Positions 1-17,418 of a stretch of DNA of 27,506 bases are shown here, one piece after another. How positions within the stretch are numbered: the stretch's first letter is position 1; each line of letters opens with the position of its first letter. The stretch is from a virus (taxonomy: Duplodnaviria > Caudoviricetes): positions 1 to 27,506 of the IMG/VR virus record IMGVR_UViG_3300035228_001376. One strand, 5' to 3'. The notes beneath the pieces were generated by a model. The model ran no database searches. It was not told the DNA's origin and saw nothing but the letters and a program-made list of their open reading frames with translations. The position numbers and the translations under genes were made by a program.

Positions 1-1380
1 GTTATACCAGTCATCAACACCAGCAACCTCAACTCTAGAATTTGCCTCAGTAACTTCAAGAAGAATCTTGTCATCTCTAAGAGCACTAATGGTCATTGTA
101 GCGTCATCACCTGGTGTGACACCTCCAATTGCATTACCTGGAATGGTAACTGTACCACTATTTTGATATGCAAGACCCGAATTAGTTGCAGTTACAGTAC
201 CAATACCACCAGTTCCATCTCGGTAAACATTAAAAGAGATTCCAGAACCAACGGTGCTTATACCAGCAACACTCAGATATACTCCACTAGATGCTGCAGG
301 AACCCTAGCAGCAGTTGTCAACCCAATGGTTTTAATTGCACCTTGATCCAGATCAAATCCACCAACAGAAGAACCGCCAATAGATACAGTCTCACCAACA
401 GTGTACCCCAATCCTGGGTTAGCAATTACAACACCAGAAGCAACAACGTTACCATCTGTAGAATTTCTTGTAATGTTGAAAGTTGCCTGACTACCAGAAC
501 CTGTTGCAGTTCCAGCTATACCAGAGTAAACCTGACCTTGCTGACCATTGACTGGTGTACTGGTAGTAATACCAACAGCAGAGATTGAGTCAACTGGAGA
601 AGCAATTACTCCTGCATTATCAACAAAACTAATTCTTTGACCTTTACTGAAAGAGGAATATGCACTACCCTCAGAATAATTTACTCTAGTATGCCTGCCT
701 GGTTGTGTACCTCCAGTAGAAACTCTAGAGTGAATCTTAACTGAAATTGCACTAAGTCCAATCTCTGGAGTGTCTACAACTTGAGTGATTACCCCTTTCA
801 AATATCCAGTAAAGGATTCAGTTGATCCAACACCAGGAATGACTTGTCCTGTAATATCAACTGTTACACCATAACCAACAGCAGCACCAAGAGATGCTCC
901 AGAAGTTGTCCCAACTCCAATAATTTGGTCACCTAAGTCATCAATGACGCAAACCTTGAGGTTATTAGACCAGGAACCTGGATTTTTTGCAGCATATAAG
1001 AAGTTAGATGCAGCACTAGCATAGTTGCTGTTATAGTCGTCAAAATTCTTAATCTTTGTGCCTGCAATTAGAGCAGTTCCAATACCAACATTCGAGTTGG
1101 AAATTAAAGCTCCATCGGTACGCACTACTTTGAGAATGCCACCGTATTGTAAGTAAGAAGATGCAGACATCCAGTACTCATACTGATTGTCCTCGGTTTG
1201 GGGTTTGCCGAAATTGTTTATGAACTCTTGCTCGTTGGCAATAGTAATTGGTTCATTAACAGGTCCACGTTCAAACGGACCTGCTATTGCGCCAATATTA
1301 TCAAGAACGTTCTCAGCTCTCCCTACCGTTAAGTCCACCTCTCTGGTTAATACACCAGGAGATAATTGAGGAGTCGCCAT
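1..1380 (-). CDS. gp18: Tail sheath protein gp18, N-terminal 460 codons (truncated by the window edge; absent from the ORF track)
   Basis: ATG at 1380-1378 with AAGGAG 9 nt upstream. Manual translation gives MATPQLSPGVLTREVDLTVGRAENVLDNIGAIAGPFERGPVNEP..., a typical T4-like sheath N-terminus (SPGVxxREVDLT, GPFxxGP). Positions 1-660 read stop-free in the same frame (...VAGVDDWYN). Lies downstream of gp17. Confidence 0.96.
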   Translation of the reverse strand, partial: MATPQLSPGVLTREVDLTVGRAENVLDNIGAIAGPFERGPVNEPITIANEQEFINNFGKPQTEDNQYEYWMSASSYLQYGGILKVVRTDGALISNSNVGIGTALIAGTKIKNFDDYNSNYASAASNFLYAAKNPGSWSNNLKVCVIDDLGDQIIGVGTTSGASLGAAVGYGVTVDITGQVIPGVGSTESFTGYLKGVITQVVDTPEIGLSAISVKIHSRVSTGGTQPGRHTRVNYSEGSAYSSFSKGQRISFVDNAGVIASPVDSISAVGITTSTPVNGQQGQVYSGIAGTATGSGSQATFNITRNSTDGNVVASGVVIANPGLGYTVGETVSIGGSSVGGFDLDQGAIKTIGLTTAARVPAASSGVYLSVAGISTVGSGISFNVYRDGTGGIGTVTATNSGLAYQNSGTVTIPGNAIGGVTPGDDATMTISALRDDKILLEVTEANSRVEVAGVDDWYN

Positions 1381-1389
1381 GGATTCTGT

Positions 1390-1685: not shown

Positions 1686-3332
1686 TCAATTGTAATCCCA
1701 CATATAAGACATATCACCGTATTCATCCGTATGCCATCTATCACCTACATTATCAACAAAACTGGTCTCATCTAATCCATCATTCAAGAATCCAAATGGT
1801 GCCATATCCTGCTCTATCTGATTTTTCTGTTCTTCATAAAGTCTTTTACGAACATCTTGATCGGTTAGTTCTTTAAAATAATCTTGCTGAACTAACCATG
1901 CATATATGACCAAACACATTGCAAGGTCATCATTACATCCATCTTCAGCTTCAAATGAGTTATGTTTTTGAATAAACGTTGTAAGTTCTGCAATTATGTC
2001 GTAATCTTTGAATACTAATTTATCTTCTTCAATTAGAGTTTTTAAGTTTAGGCAACCAATTTTCTTTACCGTCTTGGACATCTTAACGCCAAGTTGGGTC
2101 TTCTTACCAGAAAATCCCTGCCCAACAACTTGACCTGCTCTACCTCTCATAGAACACATTAAAACATTATCATATTCTAAATCAAAATTTAAGATAGAAG
2201 CAACTTGATCACCAACATCATTAACTTCACATAATACAAATGCGTTATTATAATTATCTGCTACTTCTTTAATTATGCTAGGGAATAGCATTGGTTTTAT
2301 TTCATTATTCCTATACTTACATACCAATTGGTGTGGGAATGTTGTAATATCAATAACAGTAAATGCTGAGTAGTCTGCACCAACTCCTCTCGCAACGTCA
2401 ACTGTAATTACATAATTATTATCATTTTGTACATCAGTAAATACATCTAATCCTTGGTGTGTTATTGATGGTTGTTCATATACCATCGTTCTAAGTTTAC
2501 TGGGTGCAATCAGAGTATCAACAGATCCAAGAAATTCACACTCAAACTCAACTTTAAACTGTTGCTCGGATGTGTTTGCAATTGTTTGACGTTTCCACTC
2601 GGCATCTCTTCCTGGTACATCACTCCAATGAACTTCTGTTGGAATATATTCGTTCTTACTACGTTCTGCGTCGTGCCAAATTTTATAAAAGTGATTCATA
2701 CCATGAGGGGTACTCACGATAATAACTTTTGTATTTTTACCTGAAGAAATTGTAGGATATACTGAACTGAAGAATTGATCAGCAATATGATTTGCAACGA
2801 ACGCAAACTCATCAAGGAAGATAATATTATATGATCCTCCACGAACTGCAGATGCAGATGTAGATGCTGCAATAATCTTCGACCCGTTCTCTAATTCAAG
2901 AGATGCTTTGTTCCATGTTAATACCCCCTGCTGTAACCACTTGGGAAGATTCTCATATGCAGTTTGTAGACGATCAAGCAAATCCTTAGCAGTTGCTGCT
3001 TTGTTAGCAAGAATTGCAATATTTACATTATCATTAAAAAGTGCATAATGAAGAAGATAAGATACAACAATAGTTGACTTACCCGATTGTCTGGGAAGTT
3101 TACATACATTAAATCGATTATGATGGAATCGATCCAACATAACCTTTTGAAACTCATACGGTTCAAAATTTTTCAGACCGTAATCCAGAGTAACAATTTG
3201 AATATAATTTTCGGCAAAATATACTGGATTATCAATACATCGTGCAAACTCAAGAACTTGATCTTGTGAAAACTCTTGAGTGGTATTTGCTTTTTTTAGT
3301 AGGGGATTACCGAGGTAATGATCAACAGCCAT
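1686..3332 (-). CDS. gp17: Terminase large subunit gp17
   Basis: YLGNPLLK N-terminus, Walker A PRQSGKST, Walker B IIFLDEFAF, coupling motif STPHG, nuclease motifs TVDVARG and DDLAM; 548 aa with no visible intein. Confidence 0.98.
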   Translation of the reverse strand: MAVDHYLGNPLLKKANTTQEFSQDQVLEFARCIDNPVYFAENYIQIVTLDYGLKNFEPYEFQKVMLDRFHHNRFNVCKLPRQSGKSTIVVSYLLHYALFNDNVNIAILANKAATAKDLLDRLQTAYENLPKWLQQGVLTWNKASLELENGSKIIAASTSASAVRGGSYNIIFLDEFAFVANHIADQFFSSVYPTISSGKNTKVIIVSTPHGMNHFYKIWHDAERSKNEYIPTEVHWSDVPGRDAEWKRQTIANTSEQQFKVEFECEFLGSVDTLIAPSKLRTMVYEQPSITHQGLDVFTDVQNDNNYVITVDVARGVGADYSAFTVIDITTFPHQLVCKYRNNEIKPMLFPSIIKEVADNYNNAFVLCEVNDVGDQVASILNFDLEYDNVLMCSMRGRAGQVVGQGFSGKKTQLGVKMSKTVKKIGCLNLKTLIEEDKLVFKDYDIIAELTTFIQKHNSFEAEDGCNDDLAMCLVIYAWLVQQDYFKELTDQDVRKRLYEEQKNQIEQDMAPFGFLNDGLDETSFVDNVGDRWHTDEYGDMSYMWDYN

Positions 3333-3643: not shown

Positions 3644-3958
3644 CTATTTTTTCTTTTTCTTCTCTGTAGCAACATTAATTGCTTTACCTTTACGGTTTGG
3701 ATTGCTATCCTGTCGATTCTTTCTTCTGAATGCACTATCCTCTTCTTTATCTGAGAGGTTGCGCTTCATTTTTGAAGAACCACATTTTGGTTTGGTTGTT
3801 TGACCTGGTTGTTTTGCACATGGTTTTCCTGCAAATTTACCACCCAATTGAACCCAACCAGGCTTGCCATCACTAGAACGACTCTTGCCAAACCAGTCGC
3901 GCAAAGAACTATCGCCACTTTTGTTAGACTCATTAATAAATTCCTCAAATGTTTTCAT
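3644..3958 (-). CDS. Basic 104-aa protein, putative internal head protein with a capsid-targeting-like N-terminus
   Basis: Begins MKTFEEFINE, resembling the T4 internal protein capsid targeting sequence MKTYQEFIAE. Lys/Arg-rich with two Cys. Its ATG lies 1 nt after the stop of the upstream -1-frame ORF. Confidence 0.8.
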   Translation of the reverse strand: MKTFEEFINESNKSGDSSLRDWFGKSRSSDGKPGWVQLGGKFAGKPCAKQPGQTTKPKCGSSKMKRNLSDKEEDSAFRRKNRQDSNPNRKGKAINVATEKKKKK

Positions 3959-3959
3959 A

Positions 3960-4235
3960 CTAGCAGTTCCAGCGACGTAATGCTTTGTTTATTTTAGAGT
4001 CTGGATCTCTTGCAGTTTTTGCAGAGGTCAGTCTCTTTTTCATACCTTTCATCCTGGAGCAGAATGAAGATCTACGCTTAGCATCTTTAGATCCCTTCTT
4101 AATTTTAGAAGGTTTAGTAGTAACTGCAGTCTTAAGTTTAGAACCTGGATTCTCTCTCTTATATGCATTTACTGTACTTTGACTCAGACCATCAGTCTTA
4201 TCTTTTCGATTGGCTTTTTGCCAATCTTCTTCTAC
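3960..4235 (-). CDS. Start-less 91-aa basic domain (DUF6321-like by recollection) in the -1 frame of the 542-aa gene; probable frameshift extension
   Basis: Manual translation: VEEDWQKANRKDKTDGLSQSTVNAYKRENPGSKLKTAVTTKPSKIKKGSKDAKRRSSFCSRMKGMKKRLTSAKTARDPDSKINKALRRWNC*. It exactly fills the gap between two genes. There is no in-frame ATG/GTG/TTG between the upstream in-frame TAA (~4262) and the late RMKGM methionines. Confidence 0.8.
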   Translation of the reverse strand, partial: VEEDWQKANRKDKTDGLSQSTVNAYKRENPGSKLKTAVTTKPSKIKKGSKDAKRRSSFCSRMKGMKKRLTSAKTARDPDSKINKALRRWNC

Positions 4236-4255
4236 TTTCCCAGGCGATCTTCCTC
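4208..4255 (-). promoter_or_regulatory. Candidate -1 programmed ribosomal frameshift cassette
   Basis: mRNA reads GAGG-aagatcgcct-G GGA AAG-TAGAAGAA-GATTGGC AAAAA GCCAATC. Slippery heptamer at 4241-4235, hairpin at 4226-4208. Confidence 0.6.
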
Positions 4256-5860
4256 TTTTTTATGTGCCTGTAAAAACTTCTCCTGAATCTGATGGAATGT
4301 CATTCCTTCAGACTTATTGCCATAGTTAGAAGCGCCCTTCTTACGACACTGAACTAATCTACCGCTAGCATACGCAGAAGGCCAAACCTTTGCACTTGCT
4401 TTTACTTTCTTATAGCAAGCATCTTTCTCGCCTGCTGCCTCTTCTACTTCTTCAAGACCAGGACAACACTTTTTACCATGAATTCCACAGTCTGTTCCTT
4501 TTGCAGTTTGAGCACACTCGGTCTCTTCAAATCTTGCTTTGGACTTTACCTTTTTACCATCGGGTCCAGGTACATACTCGCCAGTGTCAGAACTCTTCAT
4601 GTCACTGCTATTTACAGTGCCATCTGCATTAGAGTCAACTCTCTTGACTGCTTTACTGGTAAGTTTCTTTAGGTTCCCACCACCAATAGATGACTCATCT
4701 TTTGATTCTTTTTGTACTCTTACAATAGGTGAATTGTGAGGAGCATACTGACTAGGAAGATCAGTTCTCTGGAAGCGAGTTACTACTCCACCAGGATACA
4801 CTTTTTCAATTTCTCTTTGAACATCTTCTCTCTTTGGCATAGATGCCTGAGGGAAGAACATCTTCATCATAAGAGATCTGCCTCTCCACATGACAACAAC
4901 TGCTAACAAGTTACCATACTCTGCTGGAAGTCTTGTTGCCTCATCAACTTGAGTTTCTTCCTTTGTTGTTGCTTTAGCAGATTTGAAGTTACGAGCCATC
5001 TGCATTGATGCTTTTTTCTGTGCCTTTGCTCTCTTAGAACCTGGTTCGGTCCTTTCAAGATCATCAGACTTTTGCATTGCACGACGACCAGGAGACATAC
5101 GTGCTTTTTCATCACCACTCAATACTCTTTTATTAGTAGGAGATGGGGACTGATACATTCCCTTATAATCTTCAGTAGTCTTTTCTGCTTTTTTCTTAGC
5201 AGATTTTTTTACATACTTTTCTTTAGTAAAAGATTCTGGTTTACCACCATAAGCGGCTCTAACTGGTGCAGAACCCTTCACATAAGTTTCTGATTCTGAG
5301 ACTTCATCTTCCTTCACACAGTCAGGAACCATTTTACCGCCTTTATTCTTCATACCTTTTTTCTTATATCCTACCCAACATTTCTCTGCAATATCTTCAG
5401 GTTTAATTAAGTCAACAACTTCCATAAACTTATTGCCGAAAGCATCTTCAATAGCAAGAGATTCTCCCATGCCACCGCCGTCTCCACCGCCGTTGTCACC
5501 TTCACCACCTTCTACTGGTTTATCAATACCAACTTCTTCTGGTTCGCGACCACCACCACCATAGCGTGCAGTCATCTTCAATCCTTCAGGAATTTTTTTA
5601 CACTTCTTATCTGTATAGCAATAATACATTCCTTTGCCACACTTCTCTTCACCGAGAATAATATCAACTAGTTTTAATCCAGGAATAATCTCTTCTTGCT
5701 GACCCTGCTTAAGGTTGGGAAGACCAACTCTGCCACTAGGAGTCAACTTTTTTTTAGCGACTTCCCTTTCATTTGGGTTAGTAGATTTTTGCATATTACT
5801 AATCTTTGCCTGCTTTTTTGCAGTTTTATGATTTGTAGGATTTATATCGAAACTTGCCAT
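4232..5860 (-). CDS. 542-aa charged multi-module protein, putative internal head (poly)protein
   Basis: Long ORF after gp16 with its own late promoter. It is a string of short Lys/Cys-rich modules (CGKGMYYCYTDKKC; CWVGYKKKGMKNKGGKMVPDCV; DACYKKVKASAKVWPSAYASGRLVQCRKKG) joined by acidic x-x-E linkers. Confidence 0.85.
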   Translation of the reverse strand: MASFDINPTNHKTAKKQAKISNMQKSTNPNEREVAKKKLTPSGRVGLPNLKQGQQEEIIPGLKLVDIILGEEKCGKGMYYCYTDKKCKKIPEGLKMTARYGGGGREPEEVGIDKPVEGGEGDNGGGDGGGMGESLAIEDAFGNKFMEVVDLIKPEDIAEKCWVGYKKKGMKNKGGKMVPDCVKEDEVSESETYVKGSAPVRAAYGGKPESFTKEKYVKKSAKKKAEKTTEDYKGMYQSPSPTNKRVLSGDEKARMSPGRRAMQKSDDLERTEPGSKRAKAQKKASMQMARNFKSAKATTKEETQVDEATRLPAEYGNLLAVVVMWRGRSLMMKMFFPQASMPKREDVQREIEKVYPGGVVTRFQRTDLPSQYAPHNSPIVRVQKESKDESSIGGGNLKKLTSKAVKRVDSNADGTVNSSDMKSSDTGEYVPGPDGKKVKSKARFEETECAQTAKGTDCGIHGKKCCPGLEEVEEAAGEKDACYKKVKASAKVWPSAYASGRLVQCRKKGASNYGNKSEGMTFHQIQEKFLQAHKKEEDRLGK

Positions 5861-5881: not shown

Positions 5882-6304
5882 CTATTTATCTTCTTCAATA
5901 TTTTTAGTTTGCGCCTTAATCATTTTAGATAACTCTGCAGTAGATCCAAAGAACATTGCGTTGTTAGTTACATTTGTTGGACCCTTTTCGTCAGCGTCCA
6001 AATCCTTTACCTTTTTTTGTAGATCAATTAATTTATCGGTTGCATCTGCAACGTTCTTGATCAATTGTCCGACGACTTCAAATTGTCTTGCTTGTCCACT
6101 ATCTTGTGCGAGTTCCAACGCAGTATCCAATGCTTCTTGTCCCTTCTCAATGATGGAATAGAGATTACCTCTCGTATATTCATAATCTTTAGTTACATCC
6201 TCAGATTCGGAAGGTTTTCTTATCTCCGTCCTTTGTTTTTCTGGTTTTACAATTTCTGCTTCCACATCAAATGTATCGTTGAGATCCTTAAACTTTTCAG
6301 TCAT
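5882..6304 (-). CDS. gp16: Terminase small subunit gp16 (140 aa; start revised from 6343 to 6304)
   Basis: DYEYTRGNLYSIIEKGQEAL...FEVVGQLIKNVADATDKLIDLQKK...TNNAMFFGSTAEL matches T4-like gp16. The ATG at 6304 sits 1 nt after the gp15 stop and avoids overlap. Confidence 0.93.
   Translation of the reverse strand: MTEKFKDLNDTFDVEAEIVKPEKQRTEIRKPSESEDVTKDYEYTRGNLYSIIEKGQEALDTALELAQDSGQARQFEVVGQLIKNVADATDKLIDLQKKVKDLDADEKGPTNVTNNAMFFGSTAELSKMIKAQTKNIEEDK
5883..5890 (-). promoter_or_regulatory. T4-type late promoter embedded in the gp16 3' end
   Basis: Minus-strand GATAAATA overlapping the D-K-stop codons of gp16, about 22 nt before the ATG at 5860. Confidence 0.8.
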
Positions 6305-6305
6305 A

Positions 6306-7283
6306 CTAATTACCATCAAATCCAAAATCATCACCAGCTTCAACTGATGAATTGTCTGCAGCAGTGATTACAAGAACACCTGCACCTTCAACATGTTCAG
6401 CAGAACTAGTTCTATACATTCCGCGCTTAACTGTTAATTCTCCACTACTCTTACTCATAACATACATGGTCTCATCATCAATAGTAATATATGATTTTAC
6501 GGGAATATTTTGATCATCATTAACCTTTAACAAAGAACCCTCAGAACTAAGGTCTTCTGCAATATTTGTGATAACATTACCATTGTATGCTTTTGTTGCT
6601 CTTGGTGTTGTATATGTGATAGATCTTGTTGCTTCTGGACTTGGAGTTCCAGCACCCAAACCAACAGATACTCTGGTAATAATATCCTTGCTGCTGGATG
6701 GAACTGGACCAAACAAGAATGTTTTTGCAGTAAACTTTAAGGTGTATAATAAAACTCTTCTAGAAGTATAATCACCTTCATAATTATCTTGGAATGATAC
6801 ACTCTCTAATGTAATCGGAATATCCCTAGATTCCCCAATAGATTCAATCAAGTCAATTGTTAGATTAAAATTTGGTTGAAAATATGGTAATATTTGCTCA
6901 ACAATTTGAAGAGCATCATCATTTAACAGTGTCATAACATTCAACTCAAATTCCATATTATATGGAACAGGAAAGAACATTTTTTTAATATCTTTCTTAT
7001 CTACTCTAGGTGCTACAGCATATGCTTGAGTAGTTGCTAACTTACGTCCATTGTCATAAGATACTCCAGTAAACTCAAACGACATTCTGGGTAGACTGAT
7101 TTGAATTGGTTTATTCAGATCAGGTTGTTGTTCAATTCTTGCCAAAAACTTTTGGGTCGGTCCATATGCAAGGGGAACCTTAATAATCTCATTACCATCC
7201 CTATTTATTTCTATACCATTAAACAGAGTTCCAAAAGCAATCACCGTCTTCCTAAAAATTTGATGATAAAAATGATCAAACAT
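6306..7283 (-). CDS. gp15: Tail sheath stabilizer / tail terminator gp15
   Basis: HFYHQIFRKTVIAFGTLFN, KVPLAYGPTQKFLAR, LPRMSFE, PVPYN, QIVEQILPYFQP motifs; AGGAG SD upstream; order gp13-gp14-gp15-gp16. Confidence 0.96.
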   Translation of the reverse strand: MFDHFYHQIFRKTVIAFGTLFNGIEINRDGNEIIKVPLAYGPTQKFLARIEQQPDLNKPIQISLPRMSFEFTGVSYDNGRKLATTQAYAVAPRVDKKDIKKMFFPVPYNMEFELNVMTLLNDDALQIVEQILPYFQPNFNLTIDLIESIGESRDIPITLESVSFQDNYEGDYTSRRVLLYTLKFTAKTFLFGPVPSSSKDIITRVSVGLGAGTPSPEATRSITYTTPRATKAYNGNVITNIAEDLSSEGSLLKVNDDQNIPVKSYITIDDETMYVMSKSSGELTVKRGMYRTSSAEHVEGAGVLVITAADNSSVEAGDDFGFDGN

Positions 7284-9753: not shown

Positions 9754-12700
9754 TTATGCAAGTGCAATAACTCTAAGGTCTCTGATTCTTGGCGGGTACG
9801 CCTGGTTTGTTGAGGTTCCCACGAGTTTAATGGTAAAGTATTTAAACTCTGGCAGAGTATCTATACTGAACTCAAAATCTTTGTAGATTAGGTTATCACT
9901 GTCAGATGCCAAAACATCTGTTTTGGAAACTTTTTTGTTTGGTAAACCATTACTCTCTGCAAAGTCTAGAATTTTACCATTTACATCCAAGTTGGTATAA
10001 CCAGGGAATGGGTAGTAAAGTGGTTCTATTTCTGGAGAATTACTAATAGAATAGAACGCTCTGATGTCATTGTAAGTATTGACATATCCTGCAAGAAGCA
10101 CCTTAATAGATGTTGCGGGATTTTCTAGTTCTACTGGTTTGTTTGCATAGATGAATGCGGTTGGATCCTCATTAAGACTTGCGGTCCTTGGGTCATTTTT
10201 ATAATCTGTAATTGGAGCATTTACTCTATTAGAGATCATAACCATACCAACTCGATCAAGGTCAATAACTGGAGATACATTACTATTTGCGGTAGACAAT
10301 GTAAATGTCAGTTCCATAGATTTATTACCAGGAAGACTATTGAGTTGTGCAAGCTCATTGACTCTAGAAGCAACCATTCTAGGTTCTGGAAGATAAGTGT
10401 CCTCATCGAGATTGATATTTGTCTTCTCAGTCTCAATGAATGAGATCTCATTACCATCCACACTAGTTGCTGAAATACCCTTCAGTTCTGCCGATATGGT
10501 TGTTCCTGGAAGAGTCATAGTTTGAACAATTGGTCTAACTGCTTCATACTGAATATTCTGTGTAGCGTAGATAAACTCTCCACCACTAGATTTAGCAGAA
10601 TTAATATAGAGTTTATTAAGACCAGATCCAGAACTTCTATCAACACCGTTAATTGCAGTATTGACTCTAATGTAATAAGAATCGAGAGTAATTGATCGGT
10701 TAACAAGAGCATCTTGCAGAGCGTGATCAGTATTGATCCTTCTCAGAGAGATACCATTGTTCTCATACTTCTGAATAGAAGTTTTTAATGGATATGTAAA
10801 GGTTCTTGTGTTATCAATACCTCTAGTAATTCCAATTAACTGACCTGCAGCGACACCAGTGTACGAGATGATCTCGTCATCAAGAAGTACATAACCTGGA
10901 TTAGTAGATGCAACAGATACATTCTCAAAAGTATTGTAACCAAGGGTACTTGCAACACTGATTGGTCCTGAATCTGAGTTTGTATACTCTGCGGTAAGAT
11001 TGGTTGCTTTAATATCACCCTTAACACCAGCAATTCTTACCGTGTTAAGTGTGGAATGCATACCATGGTTTTTATGATTAACCTTGATATGTAGACCATC
11101 TTCCGCAAGAGTTGCAAGTTCAAAATCAAGAATTCGCGTATTACCACCAGAAACCGAAGTCAGAGTTGTAATCCCTGCAGCACTTATAAATTGTAAGGGT
11201 TTAGCGCCGTTGAGTTCAAATTCGCCCTGGATATTATCAATGATTAATTCATTGATACCAGTTACATTTCCAAGAGATAGTTGAAGATTTCTTCCTAACT
11301 GATCATTGCCGAAGTTGCCAACGGTAAATACATCACCGACTTGATAACCAGAACCACCAGTATTAATTGTTGCTCCAATAGCAATACCGTTAGTAGATCC
11401 TTGAGCACCAATTGTAATATCAGCAGTGGCATTTCTGCCATTACCACTAAATGTTACGAGTGGCACATTTGCAAAGGTAAACTGAGTCCCATTAGATGGA
11501 GTATATCCAATACCTGCGTTGATAATTGTCAGATCTCCTGTTGCAGATCCACCAGCACCAACATAGTCACCACTTACATTAGCGTTCTCTTGAATAATAG
11601 TATTACCAATAACCAAACTAGAGGTATCGATAATATCCTGACCCGTAAGAATTACTCTCTTTGACTCAAATTCAAACGCATCTTTGACGAGGTTTGCAAT
11701 CTGACTATTACCCTTATCAAGTTCTGGGTTAAAGAATGATATGGTAGCACTCTCATCAAAACCTGCAGTATAAAGACTAAACTTGAGATCCTCATATTGA
11801 GAAGCATTCCAAGTAGAACCATTCTGAGACTTGAACAAGGAACCTAGGTGTGGTTGTGCGGACACAAGAACCTGTCTAGATTCTGCTTGAAGCAGAGTAC
11901 TAATGTCAACCTCACCCATTCTGGAAATCCAGACGGTATATTCGTTAGACTGTGACAGAAGAACAACGCAGTGTTCTGTTCCACCATTCAAGTAAACTGG
12001 TGCAGGGAACAATACCGTTGTAGGAACCGTTGCATCAAAAGACTCTTCAATTTGATCAGATTCGAGAATTACTTCTCCAAACGGATAAATTTCATTTGAT
12101 GGATATCCATTAACCATTGGTCTCAGTTGTACTGTGACAGATAAAAGTGGATCCTTCGTTCTGAAGAATACTTCAATTTCTGTTACAAATGCACCTGGAT
12201 CATCCACAATCGTAAATGATTGTGCCAAGGGATCTTTACCTCTTCTGGGCGGTCTTGGGGGACGTGGCGGACGAGGTGGTCTCGGAGGACGTGGCGGTCT
12301 TGGAGGTCTTGGAGGGGGCGCTGGACGCGGACGTGGCGCTGGCCTAGGTCGCACCGATGGACGCGGTGGTGCCGAAGGTCTTGGCCTTGGTGGTGGTGGT
12401 GGTGGCGGTGGTGGTGGCGGTGGCGGCGGTAAGACCCTAACGCTAGTACTAGTACTATTAGTAATTGCAGTGGTTACCTGTACATCAGTTGCTGGTCTAG
12501 CTTCAGCTGTTGCTCTTCTTTCAAATCTTGGTTTTCTTGTAGATCTAATAGTTTCTTGAACATTATTGAGAGTACCTGAAGCAAAGTACGCTTCTTCTCC
12601 GCTAGTATCTGTAAGACCACCGATAGTGCTATTTACAGAACTACTTGTAAGTCTAAAGACTTTTGTACCAACCTCAAAGGTTGGGTTTGTTGGATTATTT

Positions 12701-15700
12701 GGATTAGGAATAAAGAATGTTCCAATAACAGTTCCAATTCTGTCAGTAACTAACTTAACATCGGTAACTTCTGCTTCACCAGTAGCACCTCTGAGGCGCA
12801 TACCCGTTCTTATCCAACCAAAATAACGTGATTGATTACTTTCTGAGAGAGTTCTGGTATCTACGTTAAGAATAACTGAAGAACTAGAATAATTCTGAGG
12901 AATCGTATAGTTCTCGTCATATGGACTTAAGGCATAGGTATCAGTAGGTTGATTAATTGGACCATACTTGTGGTTAGACTGAGCAACTCGGAATGAAATT
13001 GTAGGAGATGCCCCAATAACAGTGGGAGTTGCACTAGTTGACATAGAACCAGTTACAGTTTCACCAACAGTGAAAGTTCCACTGATCATTCTAATTTCAA
13101 CTAGTTTTGGAACAACAAATCCATTTACATTAACACCATCAAAGAATCCATAAACTCTAGTTCTTGGTTTGAACTTTCTACCAGTAAATTCAACATTACG
13201 TGATCTCATAAATGCGACCACATCCGAACTTACAACCCTATCACCTTCATTGATGGTCTCAGTTTGTTCAGAAACTCTAAGTCTCTCTCCAGCTCTATTC
13301 TCAGTACCAGTCCTAGTGGTTGTTGTTACTGCAGTAGTTCTTAACTGATTAGTTGTAGTGATCGTTCTACCACTCTGTACTGAACTACTTCCAGTTGTAA
13401 CTGTGCTCCTTGCTACGGTAGCAGAAGATCCAGTCCAGGTTGCTGCCCAAGCACCCCAACGTACAGGTCCTAAACCAGTTTGTGCATCATAACCTGCAAA
13501 CTCAAGTTGAAGTCTTGATTGAGTATAATCATCAACATTGATTCTCTGTGGTGCCAATCTCACTTGGTCAATCCAGATATCAGACGTTGGGAAGAGTTCA
13601 ATATTACCCGAGTAAGTTGTAACCAGATATGGAGTTACGTTTTCAACTCTAGTAGCAAATGGATTTTGAATCTCAAGACCATCAACATAGTTGATAGTGA
13701 TTACCTGACCAGTTCTTCTAAAGTTAGAACCTACAATGTCAGTTACAAATGCAGGACTTACGTTTGGATTTGCAGTAGTTCCAATACCAATCAAAGATCT
13801 AGAACCAACTAACATATCAACTTCAGTTGTGAAGTGTGATGGTCTTAGTTCAGTATTAAGTGGGTCGATAGAATTTGTAATGTTACCTGATTTGAGTTGA
13901 TTCTGAGTACTTGTAAAGTTGTCAACAAAAATACCAGATTTAAATCTAGTCAGACCACTGTCATCGGGGATAATTAATGCTTCAGTCTTTGCTTCAAGCA
14001 GAGACAATGCAGTATAGTACTCAAGATTCTTAATTCGATCTTCCAGAATTGCAATATCTTGCATTCTGTATCTCTTATGTGACTTCAGAGAAATGCTAAC
14101 ATTTTCAGCATTGCATAAGTATGGTGGAAGATTGATAGTAGCAACTTCTAGAGCATTGTCTATTGGAAGAGGTGGAAGTGGAGATTCGCTAGGAACACCC
14201 TTCAATAATTGGAATCCGCCGTCTGGATTAAAGTAAATTTTATCAATTCTTGGTAGATAGTGCCCATAAGTAATTAAAATAGACTCATCAGATGCAAGAA
14301 TATTCTTAGCAGAGTTTGTCCCATCTTCAAAAGTGCGGGAATTGAATTCAAATGGAGATGTTGTAGTAGAATTTGGATTAAATTGTCTTACTCTTGGTCT
14401 AATATCAAGAACATCAGATAATCTTGTATTATCCCTAAGGAGAGGAAGGTCACAATAATCAAATTGATCGTAAGAAGATATCGTTGTCAGATCACCTTCA
14501 GTCGAGTCACTATACTCTGCAGACTCAAATATAACTCTTAACTGCCTTCTAGGTGCTTTAGAAGATGGTTTTCTTATCAGTCTTGAGTAGTCAACAATAG
14601 TCTCCCTATGACCAGAGTCTAATGTATATCTACTAAGAATATTTTCATCACCTAGATCAAAATCATTAATTGTTCCAGTAATACCAGTAGTCTCTGTAAG
14701 AATAGATTCTCCAATCTCAAAACGAAGATCATTGAGATATACTAGACCTGCAATAGAAGAGGTTGGTTTTTCAATGAACAGACCAATGGCACCACTAGTT
14801 TGTCCAACGATTTCTTCACCAATAATAAAGTCGTCAGTTTTTCCTGTAGGACCATTAAGATTGAATAACGTAATATTAGGTATATTTGGTTGCCCGTTGT
14901 CATCTGCTTCAAATACGGCATAGACTTTAATTACGTCTGGTTCAAGAAGACAAACATCTTTATCTTGAACTCTAAGACCATAACCATATGAACCATAGGT
15001 AAGACCGTCGTTCAAAGTGGTTGATCCAATACCCGATGAAGATAATTTGGATTTATTGACAATGATTGAATTTGTTTTAATCGAATTTTTGACTTTATTA
15101 GTTACATTAGTCTTCTTGAGGGTTGCAATTAAGCGTCCAGAACCAGTAACATCAAGACCAAAAATTCTTAACTCTCTTCCACCATTTGTATATCTAAATT
15201 TATCCGCAGTTAATTCTTCAAATCCACCTTGACTATTAATGAGTACATAACGCTCTTCATCATATGCGAGGAATGTCTCATTATCTCCTGCTTGAATGGT
15301 ATTAGTTGCATTTGCAGTAATAGTGACATTAAACTCTTTCTTGATAGAAATAGTCGATTTAGTAAGATCTACTGAAGAGACAAACTCTTTTGGCAAAGGA
15401 GTGTATAGAGTATTGTCTGTTGATGATTGGAATCTTGTTCCGATAATCTGAAAGTCTGCGGGATTAATGCTTGAGGTTGGCAGACCGCCGTCATTAATAA
15501 GCGATACTGTAGTAATGCCAGAAATAATAATATTATTAGGGTCAGTAACACTGTCAACTTTCGCATAAGTTTTAATTGAGGTACTTCCAAGTAAATTATT
15601 TGTAAACGATACCAGATCTCCAGATTTAATGAGATTCGTAAATACTTGGTCTGAAGACGTTACTGTGGATATTCCTGGAGCGGATCCAGACTTCGGGGAA

Positions 15701-17418
15701 ATGGTAATACCACTATAGTCTACTTTAGAATACTGCTTAACATCAGAGTTAAAGGTCTGTCCAGCACCAACGCTACTGTAGAGTGATTTTACATCAGCAA
15801 CACTGTATTCTATAACTGAAGTTGAAATTCTTCCATCATCAACACCATTAAATACGAGTTTCTCTCCTTTAAGGAAAGATCCTTTAGTGCCATATGCAGT
15901 TACAATACCAATAGCAGTATCATATCGCAAGTGTGCTGTGGCACCACTAGACTTACCAACAATATATGTTGGCACAGTTAATGTTGATGCTTGATTGAGA
16001 CTAATCTCAGTATATGGTTGAATATCATATAACGTAACATCCCACTCATTGATATCGGATGCTACCGATGAGTATGATCCAGACTCCAGTGCATAGTCAT
16101 ATACACGAGCTACACCAATTTCTTTACCAGCAGGGGTAGTACTTGTTACACCAATTCTAGAATCTCTAAGGCTAATATTTGATGATGTACTAAAACCAAT
16201 TCTAGGAGCACCAAATGTTCTATTAAGAGTTAAAGTAGGTCCAGTAAAGTAATTAACTGCTTGTTCTTTTAATGTTTTAATAGATCTAGTTTTGGGGAAA
16301 TCTAGATAATGAACTGTACCAGAATCTACCTCAAAACCCCGAATAAATGCTTTACCTGGGGAGATCTTATATGTTGCTAAATCACTACTAGGAATATTAC
16401 TATTATACGTTAACTGATCTCTTGAGAAGATGCCATTATTACCCTTACGATCATCAAGAGACTCTCTAGAATGAATAGAAAATGGTTTTACATAGAAGTC
16501 GCCAGACTGATCATAGGTTCTCCTTGCAAGTTCTTCTGCTAACTCATTATATTTTGTTCTGTCTTCTATATGCTGTAAATCGCCATCCCTAATCAACATT
16601 AACTGAACAAAGTTTTCACTTTTATCAGACTCTAAAGGTCTCTTTGCAAGCAAAGCACTAATTCTAAGTCTGTCTGCACCTGGGGCAGCATAATTATTAA
16701 AACCCTTTGCATTATCAGTAAGAGTATTGTCTTGATTTGATGAGATTACTTCCTCAAAGATTTCAAGACCAACCCTATACGATGGATCCGATTTATGAGC
16801 ATCCAGAATTAAAGTTTGTGACGGAACCTTTACAAACGTTCCACGAAGAAAATATACGCCTTCTGTTAAAAATACTGCCGAACCAATAGCAGTTGACTTA
16901 ATTGGTGCAGTATTTGCAAATCCCTGACCAGATTGGAAGTTTACAATAGTAGTTGAAAGATTATCCTCTAAAAGGAGAGTCTCGTCATCGTCAAAAATAT
17001 CTTTACCTTCATTACCTGCACCAACATAACTTACAAAGAATGTGTAGTAACCGCGTTCAGATGCATCCGTTCCTTCATAAAAAACTATTTTCGCAAGTAC
17101 ATTGGAGTTTTGACCTCTAATGTATACATTTACTAGATCATCCGCGTAGTTATCAATAGGAACCCCAAGATATTCGGGTTCAACCTCTACAGAAAAGAGG
17201 GTATTATTATAGTTAATTTGTCCTGGTATGACAATAGAACCCTCTTTAAATAAGTGGGTTCCAACCTGTTCAACTTGATCTTGAAGAACTGCTTGGAGTG
17301 AAGTTAACTCCCTGGCTTGAACTGGCAGCCCTGGTTTAAATAGTACTCTGTAATAATTCTTTTCAGAATCAAAATCATCAAAATAAGGAGATACATTGAG
17401 ATTAGTTTCTTGTGGCAT
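9754..17418 (-). CDS. Large virion structural protein (DUF4815 / VrlC-like), 2554 aa
   Basis: NLNVSPYFDDFD...RVLFKPGLPVQARELT, APGADR, LARRTYDQSG, RYRMQDIAILEDRIKNLEYYTALS, RFKSGIFVDNF, DPLAQSF, GSLFKSQNGSTW, terminal PRIRDLRVIALA; lies between gp8 and gp13. Confidence 0.9.
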   Translation of the reverse strand: MPQETNLNVSPYFDDFDSEKNYYRVLFKPGLPVQARELTSLQAVLQDQVEQVGTHLFKEGSIVIPGQINYNNTLFSVEVEPEYLGVPIDNYADDLVNVYIRGQNSNVLAKIVFYEGTDASERGYYTFFVSYVGAGNEGKDIFDDDETLLLEDNLSTTIVNFQSGQGFANTAPIKSTAIGSAVFLTEGVYFLRGTFVKVPSQTLILDAHKSDPSYRVGLEIFEEVISSNQDNTLTDNAKGFNNYAAPGADRLRISALLAKRPLESDKSENFVQLMLIRDGDLQHIEDRTKYNELAEELARRTYDQSGDFYVKPFSIHSRESLDDRKGNNGIFSRDQLTYNSNIPSSDLATYKISPGKAFIRGFEVDSGTVHYLDFPKTRSIKTLKEQAVNYFTGPTLTLNRTFGAPRIGFSTSSNISLRDSRIGVTSTTPAGKEIGVARVYDYALESGSYSSVASDINEWDVTLYDIQPYTEISLNQASTLTVPTYIVGKSSGATAHLRYDTAIGIVTAYGTKGSFLKGEKLVFNGVDDGRISTSVIEYSVADVKSLYSSVGAGQTFNSDVKQYSKVDYSGITISPKSGSAPGISTVTSSDQVFTNLIKSGDLVSFTNNLLGSTSIKTYAKVDSVTDPNNIIISGITTVSLINDGGLPTSSINPADFQIIGTRFQSSTDNTLYTPLPKEFVSSVDLTKSTISIKKEFNVTITANATNTIQAGDNETFLAYDEERYVLINSQGGFEELTADKFRYTNGGRELRIFGLDVTGSGRLIATLKKTNVTNKVKNSIKTNSIIVNKSKLSSSGIGSTTLNDGLTYGSYGYGLRVQDKDVCLLEPDVIKVYAVFEADDNGQPNIPNITLFNLNGPTGKTDDFIIGEEIVGQTSGAIGLFIEKPTSSIAGLVYLNDLRFEIGESILTETTGITGTINDFDLGDENILSRYTLDSGHRETIVDYSRLIRKPSSKAPRRQLRVIFESAEYSDSTEGDLTTISSYDQFDYCDLPLLRDNTRLSDVLDIRPRVRQFNPNSTTTSPFEFNSRTFEDGTNSAKNILASDESILITYGHYLPRIDKIYFNPDGGFQLLKGVPSESPLPPLPIDNALEVATINLPPYLCNAENVSISLKSHKRYRMQDIAILEDRIKNLEYYTALSLLEAKTEALIIPDDSGLTRFKSGIFVDNFTSTQNQLKSGNITNSIDPLNTELRPSHFTTEVDMLVGSRSLIGIGTTANPNVSPAFVTDIVGSNFRRTGQVITINYVDGLEIQNPFATRVENVTPYLVTTYSGNIELFPTSDIWIDQVRLAPQRINVDDYTQSRLQLEFAGYDAQTGLGPVRWGAWAATWTGSSATVARSTVTTGSSSVQSGRTITTTNQLRTTAVTTTTRTGTENRAGERLRVSEQTETINEGDRVVSSDVVAFMRSRNVEFTGRKFKPRTRVYGFFDGVNVNGFVVPKLVEIRMISGTFTVGETVTGSMSTSATPTVIGASPTISFRVAQSNHKYGPINQPTDTYALSPYDENYTIPQNYSSSSVILNVDTRTLSESNQSRYFGWIRTGMRLRGATGEAEVTDVKLVTDRIGTVIGTFFIPNPNNPTNPTFEVGTKVFRLTSSSVNSTIGGLTDTSGEEAYFASGTLNNVQETIRSTRKPRFERRATAEARPATDVQVTTAITNSTSTSVRVLPPPPPPPPPPPPPPRPRPSAPPRPSVRPRPAPRPRPAPPPRPPRPPRPPRPPRPPRPPRPPRRGKDPLAQSFTIVDDPGAFVTEIEVFFRTKDPLLSVTVQLRPMVNGYPSNEIYPFGEVILESDQIEESFDATVPTTVLFPAPVYLNGGTEHCVVLLSQSNEYTVWISRMGEVDISTLLQAESRQVLVSAQPHLGSLFKSQNGSTWNASQYEDLKFSLYTAGFDESATISFFNPELDKGNSQIANLVKDAFEFESKRVILTGQDIIDTSSLVIGNTIIQENANVSGDYVGAGGSATGDLTIINAGIGYTPSNGTQFTFANVPLVTFSGNGRNATADITIGAQGSTNGIAIGATINTGGSGYQVGDVFTVGNFGNDQLGRNLQLSLGNVTGINELIIDNIQGEFELNGAKPLQFISAAGITTLTSVSGGNTRILDFELATLAEDGLHIKVNHKNHGMHSTLNTVRIAGVKGDIKATNLTAEYTNSDSGPISVASTLGYNTFENVSVASTNPGYVLLDDEIISYTGVAAGQLIGITRGIDNTRTFTYPLKTSIQKYENNGISLRRINTDHALQDALVNRSITLDSYYIRVNTAINGVDRSSGSGLNKLYINSAKSSGGEFIYATQNIQYEAVRPIVQTMTLPGTTISAELKGISATSVDGNEISFIETEKTNINLDEDTYLPEPRMVASRVNELAQLNSLPGNKSMELTFTLSTANSNVSPVIDLDRVGMVMISNRVNAPITDYKNDPRTASLNEDPTAFIYANKPVELENPATSIKVLLAGYVNTYNDIRAFYSISNSPEIEPLYYPFPGYTNLDVNGKILDFAESNGLPNKKVSKTDVLASDSDNLIYKDFEFSIDTLPEFKYFTIKLVGTSTNQAYPPRIRDLRVIALA
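12241..12429 (-). repeat. GC-rich coding repeat: 14 consecutive Pro, an RP-rich spacer, then (RPP)x7
   Basis: Plus-strand (TGG/CGG)14 at 12388-12429 and seven degenerate 9-nt units at 12247-12309. Confidence 0.95.

Follow-up and report, generated by a model that had tools for sequence, protein, structure and literature searches.

A probable programmed −1 ribosomal frameshift joins a DUF6321 domain to a late-region protein of an uncultured marine T4-like virus

Among tailed phages, most of the programmed frameshifts described so far are in genes for tail chaperones, capsid proteins and tail proteins. A closely similar layout is found in the bacterial gene dnaX: in E. coli (tau/gamma), an internal Shine-Dalgarno (SD) sequence 9–14 nt upstream, a slippery heptamer ending in AAG and a 3′ stem-loop together give a short and a long product, and a review of recoding states that both polarities occur among bacterial dnaX genes (PMC5009743). 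The same review describes a −1 shift near the end of a lambda morphogenesis gene that appends a domain to the C-terminus of a fixed share of the product (gpG/gpGT), −1 shifts that create two C-termini in T7 gene 10A/10B and in the head and tail proteins of Lactobacillus phage A2, and a −1 shift that yields the short and long forms, CsoS2A and CsoS2B, of a modular protein within the icosahedral shell of the carboxysome (PMC5009743). Here we analyze a junction of this kind in a 27,506-nucleotide stretch of DNA (positions 1–27,506 of IMG/VR record IMGVR_UViG_3300035228_001376; hereafter the window) from an uncultured marine T4-like virus of the Caudoviricetes, in which a gene for a 542-aa protein ends in a slippery heptamer and a stop codon and is followed, in the −1 frame, by a start-less DUF6321 domain. 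The mechanism that we propose is already known from dnaX and lambda G/GT; what is new is the selection test, the covariation of SD and heptamer, the presence of several unrelated cassettes and the existence of two polarities. We found no paper in the open-access literature on frameshifting in the DUF6321/GC 119 (gp114) family.

The 0-frame open reading frame (ORF) of the gene, which lies between the small and large terminase genes, runs from 5860 to 4232 on the minus strand, encodes a modular basic protein and ends CTG GGA AAG TAG. Its closing Gly-Lys codons form part of an in-phase heptamer, G_GGA_AAG (4241-4235, minus strand), which is also the slippery heptamer of lambda gpG/gpGT; GGGAAAG is present as a single copy over both strands of the 27.5-kb window. 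The 0-frame stop TAG (4234-4232, minus strand) stands directly 3′ of the heptamer, and the G that precedes it, together with TA, makes the first −1 codon (Val). On the same strand, an SD-like GAGG (4255-4252), the predicted 5′ stimulator, ends 10 nt upstream of the heptamer, and a 7-bp hairpin (4226-4208), a possible auxiliary stimulator, starts 8 nt downstream. The −1 frame is open from 4259 to a stop at 3962-3960 and, after the slip (3960..4235, minus strand), specifies 91 aa that make up a complete DUF6321 (PF19846) domain, scoring 56.1 bits against a curated profile cut-off of 28.5; the predicted fusion is 633 aa long. The first ATG, GTG or TTG in this frame is at 4052 (residue 62), leaving no usable start. 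An earlier note on this DNA, written from the letters alone, had described the heptamer, the GAGG, the hairpin and the start-less 91-aa extension, and we found each of them again as stated there. The domain has a pI of 10.5 and is predicted to be all-helical (pLDDT 77). It had no sequence match in the PDB, and Foldseek searches with its predicted fold found no match in the PDB and only DUF6321 members in BFVD (at E below 0.001); the Atlas likewise gave only DUF6321. Readthrough of the stop was rejected as an explanation, since past the TAG the 0 frame closes after 15 codons and the domain is not encoded there.

We consider a programmed −1 ribosomal frameshift at G_GGA_AAG, yielding forms of 542 and 633 aa, to be the best explanation of this arrangement, and put its probability at roughly 0.87. 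This was also the reading of the earlier note, and it is well supported because the break is conserved, the start-less −1 frame is under purifying selection, and the combination of SD and heptamer recurs at unrelated junctions. In a mechanism modelled on studies of dnaX and of insertion sequences (PMC5009743, PMC4066793), GAGG would pair with 16S rRNA 9–14 nt behind the slippery site while the stop codon, perhaps also the hairpin, pauses the ribosome; some of the ribosomes would then slip back one base, with tRNA-Gly and tRNA-Lys moving from GGA/AAG to pair with GGG/AAA, and would resume translation with V-E-E-D-W-Q. One mRNA would in this manner give rise to the 542-aa protein and to a 633-aa form that has the basic DUF6321 module at its end. 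The review cited above places the SD of −1 shifts 9–14 nt upstream of the slippery site and describes both G_GGA_AAG and A_AAA_AAG as highly shift-prone in E. coli (PMC5009743).

The junction departs from each of the described systems in some respect. Whereas dnaX encodes a polymerase subunit, the window gene is a phage late gene in which G_GGA_AAG has a 0-frame stop directly behind it; its stem is shorter and not always present in the family, this one gene family contains several unrelated cassettes, and relatives that are almost identical differ in polarity. In contrast to lambda G/GT, the gene is situated between terS and terL, far from the tape-measure gene, and matches only PHROG 727 and DUF6321. 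A lambda-type tail assembly chaperone identity was rejected on the basis of the terS-terL position and the lack of a match to tail assembly chaperones; some T4-like phages are said to make G/GT without frameshifting, in a statement of the PRFect paper (PMC10885494) that cites Vladimirov 2022. The shifts of T7 10A/10B and A2 extend shell or tail subunits, whereas here the addition would be a small basic module that is predicted to be internal and to be cut off. CsoS2, finally, belongs to a cellular organelle and has no SD stimulator, and the likeness to it implies no homology.

The frame break is not a sequencing error. Two IMG/VR contigs, L081 and L082, match the window exactly across the junction, and contigs from five DNA runs (X6, X7, X8, X11 and X17), none of which was flagged as a possible source of the window, bridge it with no gaps; these are assembled contigs rather than raw reads. 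Because the contigs of five other DNA runs bridge the site gap-free, the break is not an artefact, and the caveat attached to the earlier note, that sequencing error might have removed one A from GGA AAA GTA, is refuted. A single-base gap is the usual form that such errors take, but the identical break is found in other contigs, in runs dating from 2011 to 2022 and in diverged alleles, so that at the contig level the probability of a sequencing or assembly error is negligible.

RNA data bear on a further explanation, transcriptional slippage, in which RNA polymerase would add a base within the purine run and so place some mRNAs in frame. The same two proteins would result, and other junctions of the family do contain a run of six A. 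However, the window site offers only three G and three A, and an SD at 10–14 nt and a 3′ stem at 5–8 nt are signals read by ribosomes. A single contig of RNA run X18 (depth 2.3) crosses the site without an extra base, which is weak evidence because contigs drop rare variants and may represent DNA carry-over; RNA run X19 covers only the gene downstream of DUF6321. We regard transcriptional slippage as very improbable.

Conservation of the break was assessed using a junction pattern that admits both in-frame and split forms, which returned 10 viral loci, one of them unrelated. All nine DUF6321 loci with this junction are split, at an identical heptamer and stop, and the upstream proteins of the nine are of two different kinds (about 542 and 690 aa). 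The possibility raised in the earlier note that close relatives might all be in frame at this site is thereby answered in the negative, and, of the features whose conservation it had thought informative, the frame break and the heptamer are conserved while the hairpin is not consistently so. Among five distinct split alleles, the −1 frame contains 19 synonymous and 3 non-synonymous changes, corresponding to a ratio of non-synonymous to synonymous polymorphism (pN/pS) of 0.044. As the ratio is this low despite the lack of a start, the −1 frame is, judging from these substitutions, under purifying selection and behaves as translated sequence.

The upstream peptide gave a second view of the same junction. 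A pattern for this peptide (EDRLGK) alone retrieved 33 loci with 24 distinct junctions; 12 of these belong to the family by translation, and the other 12, judged unrelated by eye, were set aside. G_GGA_AAG is present at all 12 family junctions. The stop is directly behind the heptamer in nine, with DUF6321 following in five of them and a different module (VDEKLN) in four, whereas two (L337 and L360) continue in the 0 frame and one is cut by the contig end. L337 (from which the top 'fused' relative, L001, comes) and L360 carry different perfect stems of 10 and 11 bp located 5–6 nt downstream, and in both the −1 frame stops after one codon. The first 46 codons of the VDEKLN module behind heptamer and stop show 13 synonymous and 3 non-synonymous changes; a pN/pS of 0.76 over 90 codons was discarded as meaningless because the modules swap after codon 47.

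These findings speak to the possibility that the break is a fixed loss-of-function frameshift, by which the lineage dropped DUF6321 when a single base changed, leaving a 3′ ORF that is no longer translated. Most relatives are indeed fused in frame, some family members are missing the C-terminal DUF6321 altogether (S-SCSM2R_117 and the second locus of P-TIM68), and the break may be young, the DUF6321 domains of the split alleles being 97–100% identical. A remnant would nevertheless not be expected to show so low a pN/pS, nor would one expect two different intact modules behind an identical heptamer and stop or in-frame relatives that retain the signal with strong, different stems; moreover, a chance indel would not repeatedly land on an in-phase X_XXA_AAG with an SD. 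We therefore think such a loss improbable. Purifying selection would also be accounted for if the domain were made as a separate protein, with ribosomes re-initiating, or starting by translational coupling, at some non-standard codon close to the stop and with GAGG, which is close to the end of the ORF, serving as ribosome-binding site, and stand-alone DUF6321 genes do exist (19 of the 265 domain matches listed have their own start). Against this, the −1 frame has none of ATG, GTG and TTG until residue 62, inspection of the eight overlap codons showed no near-cognate start, and re-initiation leaves unexplained both the invariant heptamer and the cases in which an in-frame gene would be truncated; we judge it quite improbable.

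The signal recurs elsewhere in the family. When all ORF overlaps were compared, in-phase heptamers ending in AAG occurred at 15 of 24 distinct start-less −1 overlaps, the 15 including loci fetched for the window's own junction; the corresponding figures were 5 of 227 for −1 overlaps that have a start and 0 of 13 for +1 overlaps that lack one. Further breaks are found upstream in 'fused' genes, where A_AAA_AAG within a YPNCVKK module is followed by a 9–12 bp stem. A scan for the upstream part of this module alone identified 114 distinct junctions in 120 loci, of which the 93 with Arg before Tyr were counted and 21 were dropped. A synonymous AGG codon that forms the SD is used in 14 of the 16 junctions with a heptamer and in 5 of the 77 without one; SD and heptamer, by this count, co-vary at a synonymous site. 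A strong stem is present at 5 of 13 CVKK junctions with SD plus heptamer and at 0 of 97 others. Across 16 aligned cassettes the CVKK stem is 92.5% paired, with three pairs changed on both sides, as opposed to 47–69% in slid controls, the structure having been derived from the same 16 sequences on which pairing was scored. The CVKK-type stem is the one stem for which covariation was observed. More generally, among family ORFs GAGG is positioned 10–14 nt upstream of 11 of 99 slippery clusters but of only 38 of 2168 non-slippery Lys-Lys/Gly-Lys clusters. The layout common to unrelated junctions is GAGG, 10–16 nt, X_XXA_AAG, and then a stop and/or a hairpin.

In two cassette types the frame of the downstream module varies between phages, some having it in −1 and others in 0. 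In 0-frame cassettes a slip would, by analogy with dnaX, truncate the protein, and a 4-nt loop indel separates 12 extending from 4 truncating CVKK cassettes. The earlier note described the extending shift and missed the opposite, truncating polarity. 'Truncating' cases of the DSSKK and TLTEKK types were graded weak because the −1 frame of any in-frame gene will by default close early, and these cases rest mostly on SD plus heptamer. Since relatives carry the signal at other joints, with the downstream part in either frame, what selection favors seems to be the possession of two forms, one short and one long. Of 389 loci that bear the domain, 61 carry a cassette of one of five types, although some of these loci had been fetched for their cassettes.

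Several observations weigh against this account. Split genes are a minority: among the 265 domain matches listed, 225 are open for at least 60 codons upstream, and, besides those with their own start, 7 lie at contig edges and 14 are start-less, 12 of the 14 being the window and loci already found by pattern, and two (L147 and L154) being new, with A_AAA_AAG plus a stop. In domain-internal scans, which are blind to the junction and covered at least 120 viral and at least 115 metagenome loci, the break stands directly before the domain in only 2 of 235 loci (among the matches listed). Part of the reason for the low pN/pS could be recombination with alleles that are in frame. Eight of the 13 CVKK junctions with SD plus heptamer lack a strong stem, and enrichment of SD and stem was not significant when compared with in-phase heptamers of core neighbor genes (0/24; p = 0.13 and 0.36). 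The DUF6321 domains of cassette carriers are 76–100% identical, so the cassette looks like a trait of one clade, and the counts are uncorrected for shared ancestry. Of 509 matching records, 15 named phages were examined and none has a full cassette at a module joint; BLASTN searches with three cassettes against phage records likewise gave no full match. As for the window's own stem, all of its pairs are present in 59 of 199 fused genes, against 6 of 7 split ones (among the matches listed); it loses its inner pair in a strain variant seen in X8 and X11, and it is absent at four sister junctions with an identical heptamer and stop.

When the peptide was recoded synonymously 2000 times, 0.5% of the versions folded as well as the hairpin (−10.4 kcal/mol), and a change from G-C to G-U is found in the stem of L084/L088. 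It was rejected as independent proof of frameshifting because it is complete in so many fused genes. What the earlier note described is there, yet for the same reason it is weak evidence for a stimulator; the hairpin is for the most part DUF6321 coding sequence that was already there, partly a by-product of encoding DWQKxN, and the adjacent stop may supply the ribosome pause. We also observed that the Val of DWQKVN is encoded by GTC in 75 of 192 fused cases (among the matches listed), relative to a background of 8% in those ORFs. This bias favors the hairpin even where there is no slippery site, which could reflect ancestry or another role of the RNA.

T4 internal proteins carry a short capsid targeting sequence (CTS) (PMC9026906, PMC5694885), and gp21 of T4 cuts after L/I-X-E (PMC9026906). 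As in T4 IPI-III and Alt, small basic units here follow a hydrophobic-x-Glu, and a CTS-like start is found on a neighboring gene of the window; the account of the T4 internal protein genes in that source does not mention frameshifting (PMC9026906). In the arrangement that we envisage, small basic modules strung together in one protein would be packed into the head, cleavage by the prohead protease would follow the junction glutamate, and the shift rate would set how much of the last module is made. The homologue from phage S-SCSM1 (S-SCSM1_29) is annotated 'virion protein', and the S-SCSM1 paper reports 45 proteins of the virion detected by mass spectrometry (PMC9602691). All 154 distinct hexapeptides that precede the domain end in Glu, some of the loci having been fetched with patterns that require this residue, and 105 of them read I/L/V-x-E (L/I in 79, V in 26 and other residues in 49), compared with 9 of 50 Glu residues in the window protein. 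The first −1 codon of extending junctions is Val, usually then followed by x-Glu.

Two features count against such a role: the V-E-E of the window junction falls outside the T4 consensus, and the 542-aa protein has no CTS-like N-terminus. A further difference from IPI-III and Alt is that neither sequence nor fold searches turned up a solved relative. The earlier note's proposal of a gp21-like site at V-E-E consequently departs from the T4 rule, although Val at this position is common in relatives, and its label of internal head protein agrees with the annotation of the homologue and not with the N-terminus. On balance we lean slightly towards a head-cargo role with protease cleavage.

Immediately downstream, a 104-aa gene (3644..3958, minus strand; PHROG 727) starts 1 nt after the DUF6321 stop. 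It has no SD, and its N-terminus resembles the T4 CTS. This start is present in 5 of 5 distinct loci where the gene is adjacent, with a gap of −1 or +1, and the gene is possibly coupled translationally to frameshifted ribosomes, perhaps mainly so in split alleles. Taken at its widest, −1 frameshifting in one T4-like cyanophage clade might act as an evolvable dial on a head-cargo polyprotein at up to five joints, with indels that flip extension to truncation, a shift that writes a Val-x-Glu site freeing the module, and shifted ribosomes that gate a CTS-bearing gene. We hold this larger picture only tentatively and think it rather likelier to fail than to stand; if true, it would amount to a Gag/Gag-Pol-like dosing of the cargo that a T4-type head takes up and delivers.

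A conserved shift in a widespread late gene of T4-like cyanophages would add both a gene class and a host group to those known for programmed frameshifting, and it has the practical consequence that, in such genes, the DUF6321 end is overlooked or shortened by gene callers. The occurrence of both polarities in near-identical relatives would provide a natural series for studying how recoding signals arise and flip, and whether selection keeps a ratio of short to long product. The signals are about 60 nt long and fit directly into a reporter. For DUF6321, which is without a solved relative, a sub-stoichiometric requirement would be the first handle on function.

The window is part of the late region of a T4-like phage. 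Its terminase small subunit is encoded at 5882..6343 and its large subunit at 1686..3332 (both minus strand), and the host is likely cyanobacterial because the large terminase is 76–78% identical to proteins of Synechococcus and Prochlorococcus T4-like phages. The 542-aa protein (4232..5860, minus strand) has a pI of 9.35 and 103 Lys plus Arg residues. Both it and the 91-aa −1 frame match PHROG 727, whose members in isolates are labelled T4-like GC 119, gp114 or 'virion protein', and annotated homologues adjoin gp15-gp17, the late head/neck-region synteny of the GC 119 (gp114) family. A TAAATA hexamer 23 nt upstream of the start codon of the 542-aa ORF (5883..5888, minus strand) is a candidate late-promoter-like element. 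A YYCYTDKKCK module is common to this protein and its homologues in S-SKS1 and S-SCSM1, and in the window it is followed by a Gly-rich low-complexity spacer (5470-5560, minus strand).

Individual loci in cultured phages also drew our attention. In S-SKS1 (L327:3701-4291, SWZG_00153/00152) the gene is split at an in-phase A_AAA_AAG with the −1 frame open to the end of DUF6321; there is no SD and structure is weak, and the split could be a frameshift or a homopolymer error. In S-SM2_109 (L492), codon 634, near the start of DUF6321, is at an in-phase A_AAA_AAG with GGAG 10 nt upstream, a fold of −12.7 kcal/mol behind the heptamer and a −1 stop after two codons, making it a weak truncating candidate. 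S-8S55 has an A_AAA_AAG heptamer without an SD.

Three observations concern other genes. In L363 (~1367-1387, minus strand), a viral gene that is unrelated and 149 codons long has G_GGA_AAA TAG at its end and is followed by a 130-codon −1 frame, possibly a chaperone frameshift of the G/GT type. Start-less +1 overlaps (…QW…S* over V(E/R)…VPYKPR…) recur at a similar junction in L029/L030, L054/L065 and L072, with 280–420 codons lying downstream, and may represent a conserved +1 shift or a non-standard start in another phage gene. Finally, a 2554-aa structural protein of the window (9754-17418, minus strand) contains, at ~12150-12400, a long stretch of proline and arginine made up of PP and RPP repeats.

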